From: a virus
Lineage: Duplodnaviria; Heunggongvirae; Uroviricota; Caudoviricetes
DNA length: 34,255 nt
Direction: 5' to 3' (one strand)
IMG/VR virus record: IMGVR_UViG_638341087_000014
Location: 1 to 34,255 of that record
The first letter of the stretch is position 1; each line of letters starts with the position of its first letter. The notes under the pieces are model-generated. The model was not told the DNA's origin and did not search any database. It was given only the letters and a program-made list of their open reading frames with translations. The position numbers and the translations under genes are program-made. Below are positions 3,497-24,011 of the stretch, piece after piece.

Positions 3497-4543
3497 ATGG
3501 CTAATACTGTAAAAATATCCAGTTGTGAGTTAATCAACGCTGATTGCCTGGAATTTATCCAGACTTTACCGGAAAACTCTGTCGATCTGATAGTCACAGA
3601 CCCGCCATACTTTAAAGTGAAGCCCGAGGGCTGGGATAACCAGTGGAAGGGCGACGATGATTACCTGAAATGGCTGGATCAGTGTCTGGCGCAATTCTGG
3701 CGGGTACTGAAACCTGCCGGAAGTCTCTACCTGTTCTGTGGTCATCGCCTGGCATCTGATACCGAAATCATGATGCGTGAGCGCTTTAATGTGCTGAACC
3801 ACATTATCTGGGCGAAGCCGTCCGGACGCTGGAACGGATGCAACAAGGAAAGCCTGCGGGCGTATTTCCCGGCAACAGAGCGCATTCTGTTTGCTGAACA
3901 TTATCAGGGGCCCTACCAGCCCAAAAATGACGGCTATGTGGCACAGGGGCGCAAGCTTAAACAGCACGTCATGGCCCCGCTGATTTCTTACTTTCGTGAT
4001 GCGCGTGAATCACTGGGAATAACGTCAAAACAGATAGCGGAAGCCACCGGAAAGAAAAATATGGCTTCGCACTGGTTTGGTGCCAGTCAGTGGCAGTTAC
4101 CGAACGAAGCTGATTACAGAAAACTGCAGGCATTGTTTGCGCGTGTTACAGCAGAAAAGCATCAGCGCGGGGAACTGGAAAAGCCACACCACCAGCTGGT
4201 CAGCGCATACAGTGAACTGAACCGTCAATACGCCAGCCTGCTGGAAGAGTACAAATCTTTGCGGCGTTATTTTTCCGTATCAGCTGCCGTTCCGTATACG
4301 GATGTCTGGACGCACAGGCCTGTGCAGTATTATCCGGGCAAACATCCCTGTGAAAAACCGGCGGATATGTTGCGGCAGATAATTGAGGCCAGCAGTCGCC
4401 CCGGTGATTTGGTTGCTGATTTTTTTATGGGGTCAGGTTCCACAATAAAGGCAGCATTGTCACTGGAGCGTCGGGCTATTGGTGTGGAACTGGATGAAGG
4501 GCGATTTAATCAGACTGTAACTGAAATAAAAAATATCTGTTAA
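3497..4543 (+). CDS. DNA methyltransferase, beta-class N6-adenine/N4-cytosine type (orphan, no restriction partner in window)
   Basis: 348 aa; N-terminal DPPY motif (LIVTDPPYF) and C-terminal FxGxG AdoMet motif (DFFMGSGST): motif IV before motif I. Confidence 0.85.
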   Translation: MANTVKISSCELINADCLEFIQTLPENSVDLIVTDPPYFKVKPEGWDNQWKGDDDYLKWLDQCLAQFWRVLKPAGSLYLFCGHRLASDTEIMMRERFNVLNHIIWAKPSGRWNGCNKESLRAYFPATERILFAEHYQGPYQPKNDGYVAQGRKLKQHVMAPLISYFRDARESLGITSKQIAEATGKKNMASHWFGASQWQLPNEADYRKLQALFARVTAEKHQRGELEKPHHQLVSAYSELNRQYASLLEEYKSLRRYFSVSAAVPYTDVWTHRPVQYYPGKHPCEKPADMLRQIIEASSRPGDLVADFFMGSGSTIKAALSLERRAIGVELDEGRFNQTVTEIKNIC

Positions 4544-4683: not shown

Positions 4684-4760
4684 GGCCCTTTAGCTCAGTT
4701 GGTCAGAGCGAGCGACTCATAATCGCCAGGTCGCTGGTTCAAGTCCAGCAAGGGCCACCA
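4684..4760 (+). tRNA. tRNA with CAU anticodon, ileX-like (tRNA-Ile2, lysidine type), often auto-annotated as tRNA-Met
   Basis: 77 nt cloverleaf folded by hand: acceptor GGCCCTT/AAGGGCC, T-arm GCTGG-TTCAAGT-CCAGC, anticodon loop CTCATAA, 3' CCA encoded. Confidence 0.8.
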
Positions 4761-4761
4761 G

Positions 4762-4838
4762 CCGCCACTAGCTCATCCGGATAGAGCATCAACCTTCTAA
4801 GTTGATGGTGCGAGGTTCGAGTCCTCGGTGGCGGGCCA
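4762..4838 (+). tRNA. tRNA-Arg (anticodon UCU)
   Basis: 77 nt: acceptor CCGCCAC/GTGGCGG, anticodon stem-loop TCAAC-CTTCTAA-GTTGA, T-arm CGAGG-TTCGAGT-CCTCG, CCA encoded. 5' end could shift by 1 nt. Confidence 0.8.
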
Positions 4839-4840
4839 GT

Positions 4841-4916
<76 letters not shown>

Positions 4917-4919
4917 TAT

Positions 4920-4994
<75 letters not shown>

Positions 4995-5646: not shown

Positions 5647-6072
5647 ATGTTTGGTATTTTCAAAAAGAAAACCCGCAAGGCCATTACCGAAGTGAAGAAG
5701 ATGGAGAACCGCGACGCAGTGGAGGCGACCGTCTGGGGCGCGTATTCCATTGCATATGCTGACGGCACCTGCGATGCGAAAGAAATCGCTGTGCTGGAGA
5801 AAACCATTGCAGCACTTCCTGCTTTTGCGCCGTTCTCGGGTGAGATTGCACAAATGAGTGCAAATATCCGCGCCCGTTATGAAGCGTCGCCGCGCTCTGC
5901 CAATGCTGAAGCCCTTCGCCAGCTGGCTGATGTTGCCGGTACTGATGATGCAGTTAATGTACTGTGCCTGTGTCTGGATATCGCAGACCAGGATGGCATT
6001 GGTCCGGATGAAGAAGCGCAGCTCAAGAAAATTGCTCAGGCGCTGCAGTTACCGCTGGAGCAGTACCTGTGA
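5647..6072 (+). CDS. TerB-like (tellurite-resistance TerB family) domain protein, 141 aa
   Basis: Pattern resembling TerB (two helical repeats with conserved AxxDG...EE/DEE, e.g. SIAYADGTCDAKEIAVLEK and LDIADQDGIGPDEEAQLKKIAQAL); AAAAGGAAAAG before ATG 5647. Family call from remembered pattern, not a search. Confidence 0.6.
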   Translation: MFGIFKKKTRKAITEVKKMENRDAVEATVWGAYSIAYADGTCDAKEIAVLEKTIAALPAFAPFSGEIAQMSANIRARYEASPRSANAEALRQLADVAGTDDAVNVLCLCLDIADQDGIGPDEEAQLKKIAQALQLPLEQYL

Positions 6073-7716: not shown

Positions 7717-8115
7717 ATGATGGAAAAAACAGAAAACAAACCGATTGCAATTGGTGCTGATGCTGCTCCGTTTAAGTTTGAGTTGTCTCAACTGGTGGAG
7801 ATGCGCATCAGTGATGAATGGGGTGAGGTTAAAGCCCGCGCGCAGTATGCGGATGGCGAAAACCAGTACTTGATCCACTACAAGGCAGCTGACGGTCGCG
7901 CCACGACGGAGTGGTTTGGTGAGTCAATGCTGGAAGCAACAGAAGATGATCGTCATCCAGGTTGTCCGGTATTTGCCGGTATGAAATTACCGGAAGGCGC
8001 AGTGGTTGAGCTGCAGCCGGGTGAGATGTTCGTAATGACAGACATCATTGATGGTAAACCGCAGTATTCGCGTATTGAAATGAATGATAAGAGTGCTCGC
8101 CTGATTCGTGAGTAA
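7717..8115 (+). CDS. Hypothetical protein (132 aa), family not recognised
   Basis: Clean ORF with CAGGAGACG before tandem ATGs (7717/7720); no TM or signal peptide; between the lysis cassette and cos. Confidence 0.6.
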   Translation: MMEKTENKPIAIGADAAPFKFELSQLVEMRISDEWGEVKARAQYADGENQYLIHYKAADGRATTEWFGESMLEATEDDRHPGCPVFAGMKLPEGAVVELQPGEMFVMTDIIDGKPQYSRIEMNDKSARLIRE

Positions 8116-8160: not shown

Positions 8161-8482
8161 AGAAATAAAAAACCGGTCACAGGGAGCAGCTACACAGAAC
8201 CGGCCGGCGAAGACCGCCAATACCACTCATGCATTGATGCAACATACTAATGACAATAGCCGCTATTGATGTAAATGCAACGTTATGCATCAACGAAAAT
8301 AAAAAACCGGCAGGGGAAATCCATTGAAGATTTGCCGGTGGCAAAAGAGGGCCATGTTTTTAACCTTAGTCGCAGAGTTACGGAGTGCAACTACGAATGC
8401 TGCCGGTATATGGCTGAATGGCGTTTCAATGATGTACGTCATCTTATCTGTAAATGTTAATGATAAACGCTCCCATTTGTGC

Positions 8483-8676
8483 GGGTCCTTTCCGGGAGTT
8501 GAAACACCGGGGGTCATAGCACGCGCAAAAACGCGCTATTTATGAAAATTTTTCAGGAAAAAGCATGTCGGTACTTCTCGCGCATAACTATTTGTTTTTT
8601 CTGACATCACATCAGTAAAAGGTCCGACATGAAAACACCCGAAAAAGGACATTTTAAGCGTTTTCATGTCGGACCC
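8483..8676 (+). promoter_or_regulatory. cos site region (cosQ-like, predicted cosN near 8500-8530, cosB-like terminase-binding repeats)
   Basis: GGGTCCTTTCCGG and CGCTATTTATGAAAATTTT are as I recall them flanking lambda cosN; three CATGTCGG-type elements (8564-8574, 8621-8636 inverted, 8660-8675) with a perfect 16-bp inverted repeat, directly upstream of the Nu1-like gene. Confidence 0.6.
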
Positions 8677-8699
8677 TGTATTTGATAGAGAAATGTATT

Positions 8700-9248
8700 G
8701 TGAAAGTTAACAAAAAGAAACTTGCCGAAATTTTCAACGTGGATCCGCGAACGATTGAACGCTGGCAGTCTCAGGGGCTATCTTGCGTCTCCGGAGGTAG
8801 CAAGGGTGTTGAATCTGTGTTTGATACCGCGATGGCAATTCAGTGGTACGCGCAGAGAGAAACTGATATCGAAAACGAAAAGCTCCGCAAAGAACTGGAA
8901 GATTTGCGTGCGGCTGCAGAATCAGATTTACAACCCGGCACCATTGACTATGAACGCTACCGGCTCACCAAAGCACAGGCTGACGCACAGGAGCTGAAAA
9001 ATGCCCGTGAAGAAGGGCTGGTGCTGGAAACGGAATTGTTTACCTTCATTCTGCAACGTGTGGCACAGGAGATTTCGGGGATACTTGTACGTGTGCCGCT
9101 GACATTACAGCGTAAATATCCGGATATTTCACCGTCACACCTTGATGTGGTGAAAACTGAAATCGCGAAAGCCTCCAATGTTGCAGCTAAAGCCGGTGAA
9201 AACGTGGGCAGGTGGATTGATGATTTCAGACGCACAGAAGGCAGCTAA
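8700..9248 (+). CDS. Terminase small subunit (lambda Nu1-like)
   Basis: Strong similarity to lambda Nu1 as I recall it ([59 protein letters not shown]). GTG 8700 chosen by alignment to the lambda N-terminus; track ORF starts at TTG 8682. Confidence 0.9.
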
Positions 9249-11136
9249 TGCAGCCGGTGCGATAGCTACAGGGCTTTTATCTCTCAATATTCCGGTTCCA
9301 CTGACGACGGTTCAGTGGGCTGATCAACATTATTATCTACCGAAAGAATCTTCATACACTCCCGGACAATGGGAAACCCTGCCGTTTCAGGTTGCCATTA
9401 TGAACAGCATGGGAAATGACCGGATCCGCACCGTTAATCTGATTAAATCGGCGCGCGTTGGTTACACCAAAATGCTGTTGGGGGTGGAGGCTTATTTTAT
9501 TGAGCATAAATCCCGTAACAGTCTGCTTTTTCAGCCAACAGATTCTGCGGCAGAAGATTTCATGAAATCTCATGTTGAGCCAACGATCAGGGATGTCCCT
9601 GCATTGCTGGAGCTGGCTCCATGGTTCGGAAGAAAGCACCGCGATAATACACTCACCCTGAAGCGTTTTTCCTCCGGTGTGGGTTTCTGGTGCCTGGGTG
9701 GTGCCGCTGCTAAAAACTACCGTGAAAAATCTGTGGATGTGGTCTGCTATGACGAACTCTCCTCGTTTGAACCGGATGTGGAAAAAGAAGGTTCGCCGAC
9801 GCTGCTTGGTGATAAACGTATCGAAGGTTCGGTATGGCCTAAATCCATACGCGGCTCAACGCCAAAAATCAAAGGTTCCTGTCAGATTGAGAAAGCCGCG
9901 AATGAATCTGCGCATTTCATGCGGTTTTATGTCCCTTGCCCTCATTGCGGGGAGGCCCAGTATCTGAAGTTTGGTGATGATGCGACGCCGTTTGGCCTGA
10001 AATGGGAGAAGGGTAAACCGGAAACGGTGTATTACCTGTGTGAACATAATGGCTGTGTGATCCGGCAGTCGGAACTCGACCAGACCGACGGACGCTGGAT
10101 TTGTGACAATACCGGGATGTGGACGCGCGACGGCCTGGCATTTTACAGCGCCGGTGATGAGGAGATGCCGCCACCGCGCTCCGTCACTTTCCACATCTGG
10201 ACGGCGTACAGTCCGTTCACCACCTGGGTACAGATTGTTTATGACTGGCTGGATGCGCTGAAGGATCCGAACGGCGTCAAGACGTTTATTAACACCACGC
10301 TCGGGGAACCCTATGAAGAGGCTGTGGCGGAAAAACTGAGCTTTGAGTTGTTGCTGGAAAAAGTCTGTCACTATGGTGCGCAGGTTCCCTTGCGGGTGGT
10401 TTACCTGACTGCCGGGATCGACTCCCAGAAAGATCGCTATGAAATTTATGTGTGGGGCTGGGCTCCCGGCGAAGAAGCCTTTCTGATTGATAAGCAAATT
10501 ATCATGGGGCGACCGGAAGACGAGGACACCCTTAAACGTGTTGATACGGTGATCCGGAAAAAATATCGTCATGCTGACGGTACTGAAATTTCCATTTCCC
10601 GTGTCTGCTGGGATACCGGTGGTATCGACCAGGACATTGTGTATCAACGTTCCAGGAAACACGGCACTTTTTTTGTGCTTCCCATAAAAGGGGCATCGGT
10701 GTACGGCAAGCCGGTGATCACCATGCCCAAAAAGCGCAACCAGCGTGGTGTGTTTTTGTGTGAGGTGGGCTCCGATACCGTCAAGGAAATGCTGTACGCC
10801 CGTTTTGCCCTGCCGGTGGTATCTGCCAGTGAAGCCGCCCCGTACACCTTCCGTTTTCCGGATAACCCCGACATTTTTTCGGAAGAAGAGGCGCGTCAGA
10901 TCGTGGCGGAAGAGCTGGTGGAGAAGGTGGTTAATGGCAGGGTGAAACTGCTGTGGGATAAAAAAGGGCGACGCAACGAAGCCCTCGACTGCCTGGTATA
11001 TGCCTATGCTGCCCTGCGTATTTCAGTTCAGCGGTGGCAGCTGGATCTTGAAGCACTGGCCCGTGCCAGAAGAGATGAGCAGGACGACGATGAGATGAGT
11101 CTGGAAGAAATCGCGGCTGCGCTGAGTGGAGGATAA
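9220..11136 (+). CDS. Terminase large subunit (lambda gpA-like)
   Basis: Near-colinear with lambda gpA ([56 protein letters not shown]). ATG 9220 (GGTGG upstream) fits the lambda N-terminal length better than ATG 9178. Confidence 0.95.
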
Positions 11137-14966: not shown

Positions 14967-15995
14967 ATGGGGTTATTTACCACGCGTCAGTTACTCGGGT
15001 ACACCGAGCAGAAAGTGAAATTTCGTGCGCTGTTTCTGGAGCTGTTCTTTCGTCGCACGATCACTTTCCATACTCAGGAAGTCATGCTGGATAAAATTAC
15101 CGGCAAAACACCGGTTGCGGCGTATGTGTCTCCGGTGGTGTCAGGCAAAGTGCTGCGCAGCCGTGGTGGTGAAACCCGCGTGTTACGTCCCGGTTATGTA
15201 AAACCCAAACACCGCTTTGATTATCAGCAGGCAGTGGAACGTCTTCCGGGGGAAGATCCGGCCCGTCTTAATGACCCGGCCTACCGCCGCCTGCGTATTC
15301 TGACGGACAACCTGAAGCAGGAAGAGCAGGCGATTGTGCAGGTGGAAGAAATGCAGGCGGTCAGTGCCGTTCTGCAGGGTAAGTACACCATGAGCGGGGA
15401 ACAGTTTGAGACGGTGGAAGTGGATTTTGGGCGCTCTGCCACCAATAACATTACTCAGGCTGGCGGCAACAGATGGTCACAGCAGAATGCTGACACCTTT
15501 GATCCAACGCACGATCTGGATGCGTACTGCGATTTTGCCTCCGGGACCATCAATATCGCGATTATGGATGGCACGGTCTGGCGTATGCTGAATGGCTTTA
15601 AGCTTTTCCGTGAAAAACTGGATACCCGTCGTGGTTCAAAATCGGAACTGGAAACCGCGCTGAAAGACCTGGGCTCCGTAGTCTCTTTTAAGGGTTATTA
15701 CGGTGATCTGGCTATTGTGGTGGCGAAAACCGCTTACGTCGATGAAAACGGGGATGAACAGCGTTATCTGCCGGAAGGCACACTGATTCTGGGGAACACT
15801 CAGGCGGAAGGCGTCCGTTGTTATGGTGCCATTCAGGATAATCAGGCACTGAGTGAAGGGATCACCTCTGCGATTCGTTATCCGAAACACTGGTTAGAGG
15901 TGGGGGACCCGGGGTGCGAATATACCATGACGCAGTCTGCGCCGTTGATGGTGCTGCCGGATCCGGATGCGTTTGTGGTGGTTCAGGTGAAATAA
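14967..15995 (+). CDS. Major capsid protein (lambda gpE-like)
   Basis: 342 aa colinear with lambda E (YVSPVVSGKVLRSRGG, PGYVKPKH, VEEMQAVSAVLQGKYTM, RRGSKSELETALKDLG, MTQSAPLM). Confidence 0.95.
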   Translation: MGLFTTRQLLGYTEQKVKFRALFLELFFRRTITFHTQEVMLDKITGKTPVAAYVSPVVSGKVLRSRGGETRVLRPGYVKPKHRFDYQQAVERLPGEDPARLNDPAYRRLRILTDNLKQEEQAIVQVEEMQAVSAVLQGKYTMSGEQFETVEVDFGRSATNNITQAGGNRWSQQNADTFDPTHDLDAYCDFASGTINIAIMDGTVWRMLNGFKLFREKLDTRRGSKSELETALKDLGSVVSFKGYYGDLAIVVAKTAYVDENGDEQRYLPEGTLILGNTQAEGVRCYGAIQDNQALSEGITSAIRYPKHWLEVGDPGCEYTMTQSAPLMVLPDPDAFVVVQVK

Positions 15996-19968: not shown

Positions 19969-20551
19969 CGATATCAGGAGCATACTGCCGGTCAGTGCCA
20001 GCCGGGCAGAGCGGGTGGTGGACTGTGTCGCCGGAGATATGCTGTCAGACATAGCGGTCTGCCTGATCCGCTATGTGAAAAATCCCGATTTATGTCCTGC
20101 TGAATTGCTGCCATGGCTGGCTTGGGAAATGGCGGTGGATACCTGGAATGAACACTGGACGGAGACGGAAAAAAGGTCTGCGATAAAACGTGCTGCTTAC
20201 ATCCACCGCCACAGAGGGACTAAAGCGGCGCTGATGGCATCGCTGGCTGACAGTCCCTTCCGGTCGCAGATTGTTGAGTGGTATGAGCAGACCCCACCCG
20301 GGGAGCCGTATACCTTTCGTCTGAACGTGGAGCAGAAGGATTTACCGGTGCTGATGAATGATCATCAGGATCTGAAGCATGCGGTGCTCCGTGCCAAAAA
20401 TCTGCGCAGCTGGTTCAGTATTCACGTTTACGGGAACAGCACAGGGCGTGGATTTGGTTACGGCTATGTGATGGCGACAGAAAAAATCAGAAGTACCGGT
20501 GTGACAACAAAGACAGTGCCCACAGGCGGGCAGAGTGAGGCAGGTGTATGA
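19961..20551 (+). CDS. Tail/baseplate protein I (P2 gpI-like)
   Basis: 196 aa in the position and with the overall pattern of P2 gpI; start overlaps the J-like stop. Confidence 0.8.
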   Translation: MNDDIRSILPVSASRAERVVDCVAGDMLSDIAVCLIRYVKNPDLCPAELLPWLAWEMAVDTWNEHWTETEKRSAIKRAAYIHRHRGTKAALMASLADSPFRSQIVEWYEQTPPGEPYTFRLNVEQKDLPVLMNDHQDLKHAVLRAKNLRSWFSIHVYGNSTGRGFGYGYVMATEKIRSTGVTTKTVPTGGQSEAGV

Positions 20552-21933
20552 ATGGACTGATTCTGACAACGTCCGGCGCTGCAGAAATTGAAGCAGCATA
20601 TCAGAACGGGCAAATCGTGACCGTCCGGCATGTTCTGCTTGGTGACGGGGGCGGGCGGGCATTGCCATCCACGCCGGATGAAATGGCAGCAATGACATCG
20701 TTGTACGGCGAATTCGGGCAGGAACCCTTTTCCGACGGTGCGGTGGAGGAGGGCTTCATCAGCGGGGATATTGTGATTGACTGTAAATCATACCCCGGTA
20801 AAACCCTTCGTGAACTGGGGATGATCAGCGACAGAGGTACGCTTATCGCGTACGGACGTTATCCGGACACCTTTTTACCAGACCAGACGGACTCCGTTAT
20901 CAAGGAAGTTATTCTGACGCTGGTTCTTGGACTGACGCACGCACAAAACGTGGTGCTGGAAGTTGATCCGGACAGGGCCATTATTACTCAGGAAATCGGA
21001 GACAGACGCTATCTGCAACGAAAAAAGAATCTTTCGGATGTGGAAGACAAGGATGAGGCTGTTGAAAGCCTCGGATTAAAACCTACGGTGGACAAGGCAA
21101 AAAATGCCGTTCAGCGTGATGGTGACACCATGACCGGGGAACTGAAAATCCGTGGTGTTAATGCGCTGAGGATTTTCAACGAAGCCTTTGGTCTGATTTT
21201 TCGTCGTTCGGAAGAGTGCCTGCACCTTATCCCTACCAGTGAAGGTCAGGGCGAGAATGGCGATATTGGTCCACTTCGACCGTTCACTATTAATCTGCGG
21301 ACGGGTGAAATATCCATGTCGCATAAAGTGTCTGTTGGCGGCGGTTCTCAGGTCAATGGTGCGCTGGGTATCGGCGTTCAGAACGCGCTGGGCGGAAACT
21401 CAATTGCTTTCGGGGATAACGATACAGGTATAAAACAAAACGGTGACGGCATTCTGGATGTTTATGCGAATGGGCAGCATGTATTTCGTTTCCAGAATGG
21501 TGTGGCGATAGCGTTAAAAAATATTCAGGCCGGAAATGCTAAAAAATTCACGTTATCCAGCGCCAACAACTCCACGAAAAACGCAACGTTTAATTTATGG
21601 GGCAATTCATCCCGCCCTGTAGTTGCAGAGCTTGGTGATGATTCTGGCTGGCATTTTTACAGTCAAAGGAATACGGATAACAGCATAACGTTCGCTGTAA
21701 ACGGGCAGATGGTTCCATCAAACTACGGAAACTTTGATGCCCGCTATCAGACCAAAACAGGCGGTGTGCAGGATGTGCGTCTGGGAAGCGCCATTGGTAT
21801 TGGACGCGGGGGAAATGCGCCATCAGGTCACCTTATCAGCGGTCTTGACGGTGGTGAAAGTATGGACTGGGCCAATGCCCGCCCGGTGCAGGTTCTGATT
21901 AATGGGGTCTGGCGGAATGTAGCGAGTTTGTAA
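20548..21933 (+). CDS. Tail fibre protein (P2 gpH position; N-terminal tail-collar-type domain)
   Basis: 461 aa after the I-like gene; N-terminal domain typical of myovirus tail fibres, Gly/Asn-rich distal part; followed by an assembly chaperone gene. Confidence 0.75.
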   Translation: MNGLILTTSGAAEIEAAYQNGQIVTVRHVLLGDGGGRALPSTPDEMAAMTSLYGEFGQEPFSDGAVEEGFISGDIVIDCKSYPGKTLRELGMISDRGTLIAYGRYPDTFLPDQTDSVIKEVILTLVLGLTHAQNVVLEVDPDRAIITQEIGDRRYLQRKKNLSDVEDKDEAVESLGLKPTVDKAKNAVQRDGDTMTGELKIRGVNALRIFNEAFGLIFRRSEECLHLIPTSEGQGENGDIGPLRPFTINLRTGEISMSHKVSVGGGSQVNGALGIGVQNALGGNSIAFGDNDTGIKQNGDGILDVYANGQHVFRFQNGVAIALKNIQAGNAKKFTLSSANNSTKNATFNLWGNSSRPVVAELGDDSGWHFYSQRNTDNSITFAVNGQMVPSNYGNFDARYQTKTGGVQDVRLGSAIGIGRGGNAPSGHLISGLDGGESMDWANARPVQVLINGVWRNVASL

Positions 21934-21935
21934 TT

Positions 21936-22481
21936 ATGATGCACTTAAAAAATATTACGGCACAAAACCCTAAAACAATTGAGCAATATCAGCTGGCGCG
22001 ACAGCATAAATTTTTATTGTGGCTGTTCTCCGATGATGGTCAGGAATGGCACGAAGCCCAGGAAAAATTTCAGCCAGACACTCTGAAAGTTATTTATGTT
22101 GAAACTGGCGAGGTGGTCTGGGTCGGAAAAGACATCACCTCAATCTGCCCGGAAAATAAAAGCGTGATTGAGCTACCGGATATTACCGCCAATCGTCGCA
22201 TTGAGGCGTCGGGTTACTGGTTCTACCGCAATGATGCATTTGTTTTTGACTACAAACTTAAAGCGGAAGACGAGCGTGATGCACTGTTAAAACAGGTCAG
22301 CATCATGACCAGCGAATGGGAAAAAGACCTGCTGCTGGGATTAATCAGTGACGAAGACAGGGAGAAGCTGAAAGCGTACCGCATTTACGCGAAATCGCTG
22401 CAGGCGATGGATTTCAGCGCTATTACGGATAAGACCACTTACAACAATATTAGCTGGCCTGAGCAGCCACAAAATACCTGA
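21936..22481 (+). CDS. Tail fibre assembly chaperone (Tfa, P2 gpG position)
   Basis: 181 aa immediately after the fibre gene, with the usual acidic, W/Y-containing profile. Confidence 0.7.
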   Translation: MMHLKNITAQNPKTIEQYQLARQHKFLLWLFSDDGQEWHEAQEKFQPDTLKVIYVETGEVVWVGKDITSICPENKSVIELPDITANRRIEASGYWFYRNDAFVFDYKLKAEDERDALLKQVSIMTSEWEKDLLLGLISDEDREKLKAYRIYAKSLQAMDFSAITDKTTYNNISWPEQPQNT

Positions 22482-22501
22482 AAAAGAAGTTAATCATCTG
22501 A

Positions 22502-22522
22502 CCGCCTGAGGGCGGTTTTTTT
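22502..22522 (+). terminator. Intrinsic terminator between the fibre-chaperone and sheath genes
   Basis: CCGCC-TGAG-GGCGG stem-loop followed by a 7-T run. Confidence 0.6.
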
Positions 22523-22535
22523 ATGGGAGAAATGT

Positions 22536-24011
22536 ATGTCCGGATTACATGGTGTTGAAACCATTGAACTGACGACAGGCACGGTTGCCGTGCAGACCAT
22601 CTCCACGGCAGTGATTGGCCTGGTGGGGACAGCACCGGACGCCTCTGGTGGTGTGTGCGCTTCCGGCACAGCCGGCTCCTGGCTGCTGGGAACGGCGCTG
22701 GATTTCACGGCGAAACAGGAAGGTCGGGCCGGTAATAAGATTTCGGTTGTTGCTGTGGCTGCCACAGAACAAAACGCGCAGACAGTGGCCTCGCTGAAAG
22801 GCACAACCCTGACGATAATACTGGGGACGGACGAACACCGCCAGATTAACGCCACAGCGGACCGTGTGACTGAAGTGGTGAATGCGCTGGGGGATTCGCC
22901 TGTGACGGCGGCTGTCAGCACCCTGAATGCAGGAGACGCTGAAAATAAAGTGGTGTTGCCGTTCAGCCTGACGTTATCCGGCGGAGAAGATGAGGCGTTC
23001 CCGGTCAATACACCAGTGGTGGTGGCAGGGGCCATTACTCAGGCTGGGAAACTGGGCACAGCCGGAACATTATACCCGGCCCTGCGAGATATTTTTGACC
23101 AGACTGGTGCGCTGGTGATTGTGGTGCGCGCAGAAAGTAAAACAAAGGCGAAAGAGGCCGAACAGCGTGCGGCGGTGATTCAGGCCATGGAGGCGCTGAC
23201 AGAAAGTAAGGGCGTGACAGGCTATCAACCGCGCATCCTCATTGCCACGGGGTACAGTGAGGATGATGGCGTGGCAAAGGCGCTGGAAACGTATGCCGTG
23301 AAGCTGCGGGCTGTGGCCTATATTGACTCGCCTTCAATGGCAACGCCGCAGGATGTGGTTCAGCGGCGCGCGTCATTTGGTGGGCGTGTGGAGCTGCTGC
23401 GTCCGCGCGTGTCAGTGACGGATGACAGCGGGCAAACGATATTTCGTCCATATTCGGCTCGTGCTGCCGGGCTGCGTGCCCGTATTGATTACGAAAAAGG
23501 GTGGTGGTGGTCCAAATCAAACCAGGACGTGATGAATATCACCGGTCTGGAGCAGGTGGATACGTTTATTCTCGGGGAGCAGAACTGCACGGCAAACCTG
23601 CTGAACATGGAAAATATCTCCACCATTATTCGCCATGACGGTTTTAAACACTGGGGTAACCGTCTGTGCACATCCCACAGTCAGTGGCGTTTTGAGCCGG
23701 TACGCCGCACTGCAGATGTGATTGAGGACAGCATCCAGGAGGCCATGCTGCCTTATGTCGATCGCCCGCTTGATCGGGATGTGGCAGACGACATTCTTGG
23801 CAGCATTAATGCCTATATGCGTCAGCTTAAAAATCTGGGCGCGATCCACGGTGGCAATGCATGGCTGAACGATGAACTGAACACTGCAGAAACCCTGGCG
23901 GCAGGGCAGTTGTATATTGATTATGACTTTGGGCCGAAGTCACCGCTGGAGCGCCTGACACTGCGGGCAATGATTAACAATAAACTGGCGCTGGAGGAAC
24001 TGACAGTATGA
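22536..24011 (+). CDS. Tail sheath protein (P2 gpFI-like)
   Basis: 491 aa; conserved sheath segments (RAKIDYEKGWWWSKSN, IRHDGFKHWGNR, AGQLYIDYDFGPKSPLE); GGGAGA before the ATG. Confidence 0.9.
   Translation: MSGLHGVETIELTTGTVAVQTISTAVIGLVGTAPDASGGVCASGTAGSWLLGTALDFTAKQEGRAGNKISVVAVAATEQNAQTVASLKGTTLTIILGTDEHRQINATADRVTEVVNALGDSPVTAAVSTLNAGDAENKVVLPFSLTLSGGEDEAFPVNTPVVVAGAITQAGKLGTAGTLYPALRDIFDQTGALVIVVRAESKTKAKEAEQRAAVIQAMEALTESKGVTGYQPRILIATGYSEDDGVAKALETYAVKLRAVAYIDSPSMATPQDVVQRRASFGGRVELLRPRVSVTDDSGQTIFRPYSARAAGLRARIDYEKGWWWSKSNQDVMNITGLEQVDTFILGEQNCTANLLNMENISTIIRHDGFKHWGNRLCTSHSQWRFEPVRRTADVIEDSIQEAMLPYVDRPLDRDVADDILGSINAYMRQLKNLGAIHGGNAWLNDELNTAETLAAGQLYIDYDFGPKSPLERLTLRAMINNKLALEELTV

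Follow-up and report, generated by a model that had tools for sequence, protein, structure and literature searches.

The segment at positions 8483-8677 raises the question of whether a locus with the outer elements of a lambda-family cos site and an unfamiliar sequence at the place of cutting is still a cos site, and, if so, where its ends lie and which enzymes read it. The window (the whole stretch of DNA analysed here, 34,255 nucleotides) contains at these positions the full lambda-family cos layout in the canonical place, just upstream of the terminase genes. A cos site had been proposed here in a sequence-only reading, and the proposal is supported by cosQ, a divergent cosN, and a cosB with three R elements, beside terminase genes assigned by Pfam to the Nu1 and gpA families. 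We consider it likely that the segment is the functional cos of an E. coli temperate prophage whose packaging and head genes are of lambda type and whose tail is contractile, and that its cosN belongs to a group designated class II, with the predicted overhang GGTCATAGCACG. Judging from the sequence, the site would mark the ends of the virion DNA.

The features of the locus are listed in Table 1. Downstream of cos, the Nu1-family and gpA-family terminase genes are followed by genes for a lambda-type portal, an S49 protease, and capsid protein E (Pfam), and the terminase, portal, protease, and capsid genes are all intact in the window. At 8300-9300, 1 kb of cos and terminase DNA, the carrier strains STEC313, STEC367, and PEC422 are 97.7-99.8% identical to the window. 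The prophage of the E. coli strain PEC422 is 99.8% identical to the window over 1 kb. RefSeq annotates the same two terminase genes in this prophage, the small terminase also with 182 amino acids, and gives no annotation at the PEC422 cos site.

Table 1. Positions of the cos elements and of related genes in the window
Feature	Position	Strand	Remarks
cosQ heptamer GGGTCCT	8483-8489	+	packaging-termination signal; same as cosQ annotated in phage 21 (OL657228) and as the lambda right end
class II left flank TGAAACACCGGG	8500-8511	+	abuts the predicted top-strand nick
predicted nicks	top 8511/8512, bottom 8523/8524		inferred positions
predicted 12-nt 5' cohesive end GGTCATAGCACG, cosN core	8512-8523	+	homologous to bp 1-12 of phage 21 and lambda
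class II right flank CGCAAAAACG	8524-8533	+	lambda has CGCGGGTTTT
cosN-cosB spacer	8534-8555	+	8534-8552 equals lambda bp 23-41
I2 IHF site	8541-8555		identical to I2 annotated in phage 21
R3 AAGCATGTCGGTACTT	8561-8576	+	bp 50-65 from the predicted end; 14/16 against phage 21 R3
I1 IHF site, between R3 and R2	8583-8597	+	13/15 against I1 annotated in phage 21 (M81255)
R2, inverted	8619-8634	-	16/16 against phage 21 R2
R1	8662-8677	+	14/16 against phage 21 R1
small terminase, Nu1/gp1 family, GTG start	8700-9248	+	Pfam Phage_Nu1, E = 6e-83
large terminase, gpA family, ATPase and nuclease domains	9220-11136	+	Pfam GpA_ATPase 8e-55, GpA_nuclease 5e-68
N6/N4 DNA methyltransferase and tRNA cluster	3497-4543 and 4684-4994		tRNAs Met-CAT, Arg-TCT, Thr-TGT, Gly-TCC
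tail-collar fibre gene	20548-21933
tail sheath gene	22536-24011
lambda-type packaging/head and contractile-tail combination	20548-24011, 14967-15995

All the strings quoted in the sequence-only reading are present where it placed them, and the lambda matches that it proposed on either side of cosN are exact. The string GGGTCCTTTCCGG (8483-8495), which consists of cosQ and the six next bases, is identical to the lambda right end, and the 19-mer CGCTATTTATGAAAATTTT in the spacer is identical to lambda bp 23-41. The cosQ heptamer is invariant across all related loci. It starts 29 nt ahead of the predicted top-strand nick, compared with 30 nt in lambda and phage 21, and the shorter distance is common to class II.

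The order R3-I1-R2-R1, the inversion of R2, and the location of R3 at bp 50-65 assign the downstream part of the segment to cosB. The 34-kb window has three copies of the octamer CATGTCGG, which all fall within 8564-8672, on the plus strand at 8564 and 8665 and on the minus strand at 8624 (8624-8631), exactly the three elements, one of them inverted, that had been described. The 16-bp inverted repeat 8621-8636/8660-8675 is perfect, as claimed, and extends to 21 nt at 90% complementarity; in phage 21, the R2/R1 inverted repeat is imperfect. The description of cosB as lambda-like holds for the R3/R2/R1 layout but not for the elements themselves, which are phage 21 R sequences, the lambda core being CGTTTCC. 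Two G bases in R3, at bp 56 and bp 59 (8567 and 8570), are also found in phage 21 at the same distance from bp 1. The reverse strand of I1 reads AAACAAATAGTTA, and the lambda counterpart is AAACATTAAGTTA.

The alignment with phage 21 extends through this region. In Megablast, 8536-9300 aligns with phage 21 at 89%, beginning at phage 21 bp 25; bp 1 of phage 21 maps to 8512, with no indel as far as R3. The small terminase shares 95% identity with phage 21 gp1 and 52% with lambda Nu1, and its recognition helix RTIERWQS (residues 17-24) is the same as in phage 21 gp1, the lambda helix being RTIQNWQE. The functional roles of cosB bp 56 and 59 and of the TerS recognition helix in specificity have been described (PMC4669245, PMC9026076). 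The 21-type R core and the matching helix indicate that cosB and the small terminase have the packaging specificity of phage 21 and that cosB resembles lambda only in layout. Since the lambda R sequences differ (CGTTTCC core, T56/C59), the packaging specificity of lambda should differ from that of the window.

The cosN region is clearly different. As the sequence-only reading had noted, the sequence between cosQ and the 19-mer is unlike lambda: the 38 nt at 8496-8533 (39 nt in lambda) do not contain GGGCGGCGACCT and cannot be aligned with lambda or phage 21, and only about 40 bp around cosN fail to align in this way. Phage 21 cos (cosQ-cosN-I2-R3-I1-R2-R1; M81255, OL657228) has the cosQ heptamer, I2, and the distance from bp 1 to R3 in common with the window, but its 12-mer, GGGCGGCGACCT, shares only 5 of the 12 bases with GGTCATAGCACG, bases 3, 5, and 6 being among those that differ. 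Lambda shares the overall architecture and the symmetry center at bp 6/7, whereas its cosN interior and flanks are unlike those of the window. The dinucleotide to the left of the predicted top-strand nick in the window is GG instead of CG, while CG is retained in the right flank.

The overhang at 8512-8523 is predicted from homology, the constant spacing to R3, and the two-fold center. In the lambda model, TerS at R3 places the large-terminase protomer whose nick falls between bp 12 and 13, and the distance between cosN and R3 is critical (PMC9026076). Since this distance is unchanged in the window, the bottom-strand nick is predicted at 8523/8524, and the center at bp 6/7 with a 12-nt stagger then gives GGTCATAGCACG. 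About this center, five of ten pairs in the window cosN are symmetric (6/7, 3/10, 2/11, -1/13, and -3/15). Among 44 distinct class II sequences, the best two-fold center also lies between bp 6 and 7, as in lambda, with a fraction of 0.58 of the pairs complementary (0.46 for the runner-up), and the pairs that are symmetric class-wide are 2/11, 3/10, 4/9, -1/13, and -3/15. Compared with lambda, the symmetry of -2/14 is lost, and that of -3/15 and 4/9 is gained. Intermediates such as AACACCGAG^GGGCGGCAGACG^CGCAAAAAC (^, nick) tie class II to the lambda register. The records of the Aeromonas phages phiARM81ld and PhAER-5 begin with GGGCGTTAGACC at the base homologous to 8512, although a record start may not be a measured end. 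The R3 type of these two phages, TTCCGGTTCCGG, is related to that of the class II loci of the 705R4 type, but they retain GGGC and a CG^ left flank and come from another host genus.

Class II loci follow the pattern AACACCGRG^GG..ACG^CGCAAAAA, with the flanks AA(C/T)ACCGRG^ and ^CGCAAAAA. A two-sided scan of IMG/VR with AACACCGNGGGTCNNNNNACGCGCAAAAA, a pattern that fixes both sides of cosN, retrieved 43 loci, in all of which the distance to cosQ is fixed and among which there are at least six R3 types. The scan was repeated with the left side alone fixed and then with the right side alone fixed. The left-side-only scan gave 46 loci, 42 of which have the right flank CGCAAAAA; the remaining ones have GGTCCGAATACC or GGTCCGAAGACT, followed by CGCAAAAAG. 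The right-side-only scan added the 12-mers GGTACGTGTACG, GGTACGCGTACG, GGTAGGCATACG, GGACGGCAGACG, GGGCTGGGGACG, and GGGCGGCAGACG. AA(C/T)ACCGRG is present in all class II loci, even those retrieved with no constraint on the left flank.

Nineteen distinct 12-mer overhangs were found in class II. G1, G2, A10, and C11 are invariant in all class II loci recovered, A10 and C11 being constant in the left-side-only scan as well, and G12 is present in all overhang types except GGTCCGAATACC and GGTCCGAAGACT (the GGTCCGAA types). The bases at bp 5-9 vary freely between the conserved flanks. At bp 3 and 10, class II usually has a symmetric T3/A10 pair in place of the G3/C10 of lambda, and A10 accompanied T3 at every locus of the left-side-only scan, in which the right half was free to vary. 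Since the pair is T:A where that of lambda is G:C, both half-sites have changed together. In a neutral scan with cosQ and the I2 motif as its anchors (at least 120 loci), the lambda 12-mer dominates among the matches listed, which also include graded variants, for example, GGGCGGAAGGCG, GGGCGTCAGGCG, GGGCGGCAGACG, and GGGCGGTAGACG. Some of these variants carry class II flanks, suggesting that lambda-type and class II sites share one alignment register.

Class II was recovered from about 60 prophage contigs of IMG/VR. Of 5,426 complete E. coli genomes, 81 carry it, in up to three copies each, and most of these are ETEC strains from pigs or STEC strains from ruminants. The loci are related to one another, so the counts do not represent independent events. 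The class is combined with six or more cosB types, with small terminases of two families, Nu1 and DUF1441, and with several large-terminase lineages. Among 50,697 phage records searched by BLAST with 8470-8570, only SerU-LTIIb and vB_EcoM-705R4 align through cosN, both with a different cosB. The former is a partial prophage (the LT-IIb prophage), and the latter is a computationally extracted prophage whose record begins with the host gene yecA; in INPHARED, class II is limited to two prophage-derived records. BLAST searches with the cos region and with the 37-mer core found no class II phage with measured ends among the 50,697 records, and right-flank pattern scans found no contig ending at cosN among 35 IMG/VR and 13 metagenome loci. 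GTDB species representatives gave only two matches, Escherichia whittamii and Enterobacter mori, so the taxonomic spread outside Escherichia is poorly sampled. Given the recurrence of its motif, the window cosN can be regarded as a member of a conserved natural class, neither a one-off nor a product of decay.

The class was compared with the natural cosN variants in the literature. As presented in PMC4669245 and in PMC9303873, which cites the survey of Vahanian et al. (2017), natural variation of cosN is limited to bp 7-12, and the left half, the CG flanks, and cosQ are conserved. The variants of N15, phiD326, Gifsy-1, and mEp213/LLS in the Feiss laboratory surveys, to the extent that these papers relay them, share the 12-nt register, GG at bp 1-2, C11, and CG to the right of the bottom nick, and variation in the right half is tolerated. 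They alter bp 7-12 only and keep GGGCGG and both CG flanks (PMC4669245; PMC9303873); the mEp213/LLS variant is GGGCGGCGCGCT. Class II, unlike these variants, differs at bp 3, 5, and 6 and in the left flank as well. A literature search on six class II or intermediate 12-mers found no relevant paper, the survey of Vahanian et al. being represented by the papers citing it. Class II thus breaks the published conservation rules for lambda-like cohesive ends and is apparently an undescribed class.

The two domains of the window's large terminase differ in their similarity to phage 21. Over gpA residues 40-250, the ATPase domain shares 98% identity with phage 21 gp2; the nuclease domain (residues 350-610) shares 73% with phage 21 and 62% with lambda. 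The nuclease domain is, however, 98-100% identical to that of every other E. coli class II locus with the same terminase type. We compared 76 distinct full-length large terminases, including a subset sharing the 21-like ATPase domain (at least 90% identity). Within this subset, the window-type nuclease accompanies class II in 19 of 20 cases and the phage-21-type nuclease accompanies lambda-type cosN in 10 of 10. Loci were also picked by the nuclease domain, with cos in reach, a sampling from the protein side that avoids selection on cos. The search on this side gave 449 relatives in IMG/VR. Class II flanks were present in 29 of 29 loci whose nuclease is 98-100% identical to that of the window, whatever the cosB. 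These counts are drawn from related sequences and should be taken as leads rather than proofs.

A strict correspondence of each nuclease allele with a single cosN class was rejected, since 24 loci with a 95% identical nuclease domain have the lambda-like cosN CACG^GGGCGGCAGCGG^CGCGGATTTT. Two other exceptions are found. L099 (IMGVR_UViG_2924371731_000005) combines a 93% identical nuclease with the exact lambda 12-mer GGGCGGCGACCT and the left flank GCGCCGAG^, and L089 has a 92% identical nuclease and GGGCGGCAGACG inside class II flanks. Both may be recombinants that show what a window-type nuclease tolerates. Class II is also found with large terminases of the 705R4 type, which come with a myovirus tail and share only about 54% identity in the nuclease domain, and it also adjoins small terminases of the DUF1441 type. 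Class II therefore seems to travel with particular nuclease-domain alleles, through a link that is not absolute.

Fifteen residues distinguish the 98-100% identical nuclease group from the 95% identical one, with clusters at gpA 554-560 and 577-582. Residue 582 is Gly in 18 of 18 distinct cos/motif combinations in which bp 3 is not G, and Lys582 is found only with G3 (38 of 38 combinations). Gly582 is also found with G3, in eight combinations, so it is at most permissive. Residue 457 (Ile or Met) was rejected as a determinant of bp 3, Ile457 also being found with GGGC overhangs. The nuclease centers of TerL show little sequence specificity and are brought into place by TerS at R3 (PMC9026076), and a changed cosN at a preserved spacing is therefore mechanistically plausible.

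A scheme for the action of the site can be proposed on these grounds. The gp1-type small terminase would bind the phage-21-type R3, R2, and R1, with IHF bending the DNA at I1, as the identity of the sites and of the recognition helix indicates. By analogy with the lambda model, this binding would set a pair of gpA-type nuclease domains on cosN, 49 bp upstream of R3. Nicks 12 bp apart about the two-fold axis at 8517/8518 would then leave the 5' overhang GGTCATAGCACG, provided that the register is as predicted, and cosQ would presumably act in packaging termination at the next cos.

Other explanations of the locus should be considered against this scheme. The site may be a functional cos that is nicked in another register, for instance, with the top-strand nick after the CG at 8508-8509 (CG^GGGGTC...) and a 13- or 14-nt overhang, or with a shorter stagger. 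The CG dinucleotides beside the nicks are highly conserved in lambda-like phages (PMC4669245; PMC9303873), the nearest CG on the left lies 2 nt upstream of the predicted nick, and the spacing between cosQ and cosN is 1 nt off that of lambda. Because GG (AG in others), not CG, stands to the left of the predicted top-strand nick, the top-strand register is less certain than the bottom-strand one. On the other hand, the class-wide center at bp 6/7 has no competitor, and the right nick is fixed by the constant spacing to R3. A 14-nt stagger, being asymmetric, would call for another enzyme geometry. Moreover, the class II-related locus L102, CACG^GGTCTGGGGACG^CGC, has the canonical CACG^ left flank directly before GGTC, with CG exactly at the predicted register. 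We therefore regard a different register as unlikely.

The idea that the prophage is defective, with an uncut site whose cosN has decayed or been replaced and whose cosQ and cosB are relics, would agree with the defectiveness of many lambdoid prophages of E. coli and with the finding of no class II phage that has been propagated or has sequenced ends among the collections searched. It is nonetheless quite improbable. Conserved flanks enclose 19 different interiors and are found with six or more cosB types, two TerS families, and large terminases that are only about 54% identical to one another, a pattern that points to selection, not decay; the joint change of the symmetric positions 3 and 10 from G:C to T:A and the intact head and packaging genes speak against it as well. 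It is scarcely credible that the inverted repeat and the nearby motifs form a transcriptional element (a terminator or an operator) instead of a packaging site. A hairpin could form from the perfect 16-bp repeat, but its arms are the R2 and R1 sites annotated as gp1-binding sites in phage 21, and the whole region is collinear with a genetically characterized cos. A search for terminator-like or promoter-like sites at the R2/R1 inverted repeat found none. A functional class II cos that is cut to give the 12-nt overhang remains the preferred reading.

A populous class with other flanks, an altered symmetric pair, and a free interior suggests that the nicking site itself has diversified, together with particular nuclease alleles. 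In the published view, packaging specificity resides in cosB and the small terminase. One tentative idea, which we put forward as possible rather than probable, is that lambda-family terminases have at least two cosN recognition classes, of which class II would be read mainly through the flanks (AACACCGRG^ and ^CGCAAAAA) and T3:A10, with any interior, by nuclease alleles lacking Lys582. If this were true, cosN would contribute to packaging specificity besides cosB, and the varied 12-nt overhangs would stop co-resident lambdoid prophages from annealing with, or being cut by, each other's machinery. With class II loci, natural substrates become available for studying how the nuclease of the large terminase reads DNA. 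Cos finding and annotation of prophage ends based on GGGCGGCGACCT will miss class II phages.

Several related loci have features of their own. On the IMG/VR contig L182, two class II cos sites (6005-6037 and 8453-8485) share a strand and are separated by 2.4 kb, with cosN GGTCCGAATACC in both and different cosB-like sequences. The pair brackets a capsid-E homologue and an AlpA-like HTH gene, with AAA_25 and Rha genes upstream, and the contig looks like a satellite (PICI-like) element beside, or nested with, another that shares the cosN of its helper. In L180 (6753-6785, minus strand) and also in L183, a class II-type cosN (GGTCCGAATACC or GGTCCGAAGACT) lies upstream of a small terminase of the DUF1441 family, not the Nu1 family; in L180, a frameshift or an assembly error divides the gpA-type large terminase between two ORFs. 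The class II overhangs of L188 and L192 come close to perfect palindromes. The stretch bp 2-11 of GGTACGCGTACG is a perfect palindrome of 10 bp, and in GGTACGTGTACG, bp 2-5 pair with bp 8-11, the central 6/7 alone being unmatched. Such near-palindromic ends could self-anneal end to end in either orientation.

In the SerU-LTIIb prophage (L006:222-1371; KU052038), the class II cosQ lies about 140 bp beyond the end of eltIIbA and eltIIbB, the genes for the LT-IIb enterotoxin. KU052038 annotates a CDS for an 'NU1-like protein' over the cos DNA itself, probably a mis-annotation. Between its lysis genes and cos, the window has an ORF of 132 aa (7717-8115) that matches no Pfam family, at the spot where relatives such as SerU-LTIIb have toxin cargo. 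Its late region, from a Q-like antiterminator (2356-2922) to the holins, contains a gene for an N6/N4 DNA methyltransferase and four tRNA genes, and a 141-aa ORF before the holins has a weak match to the TerB domain (5647-6072). The lambda-type packaging and head genes (Nu1, gpA, a lambda-family portal, and capsid E) are joined with a contractile tail in the window prophage, and the same mix is found in vB_EcoM-705R4.
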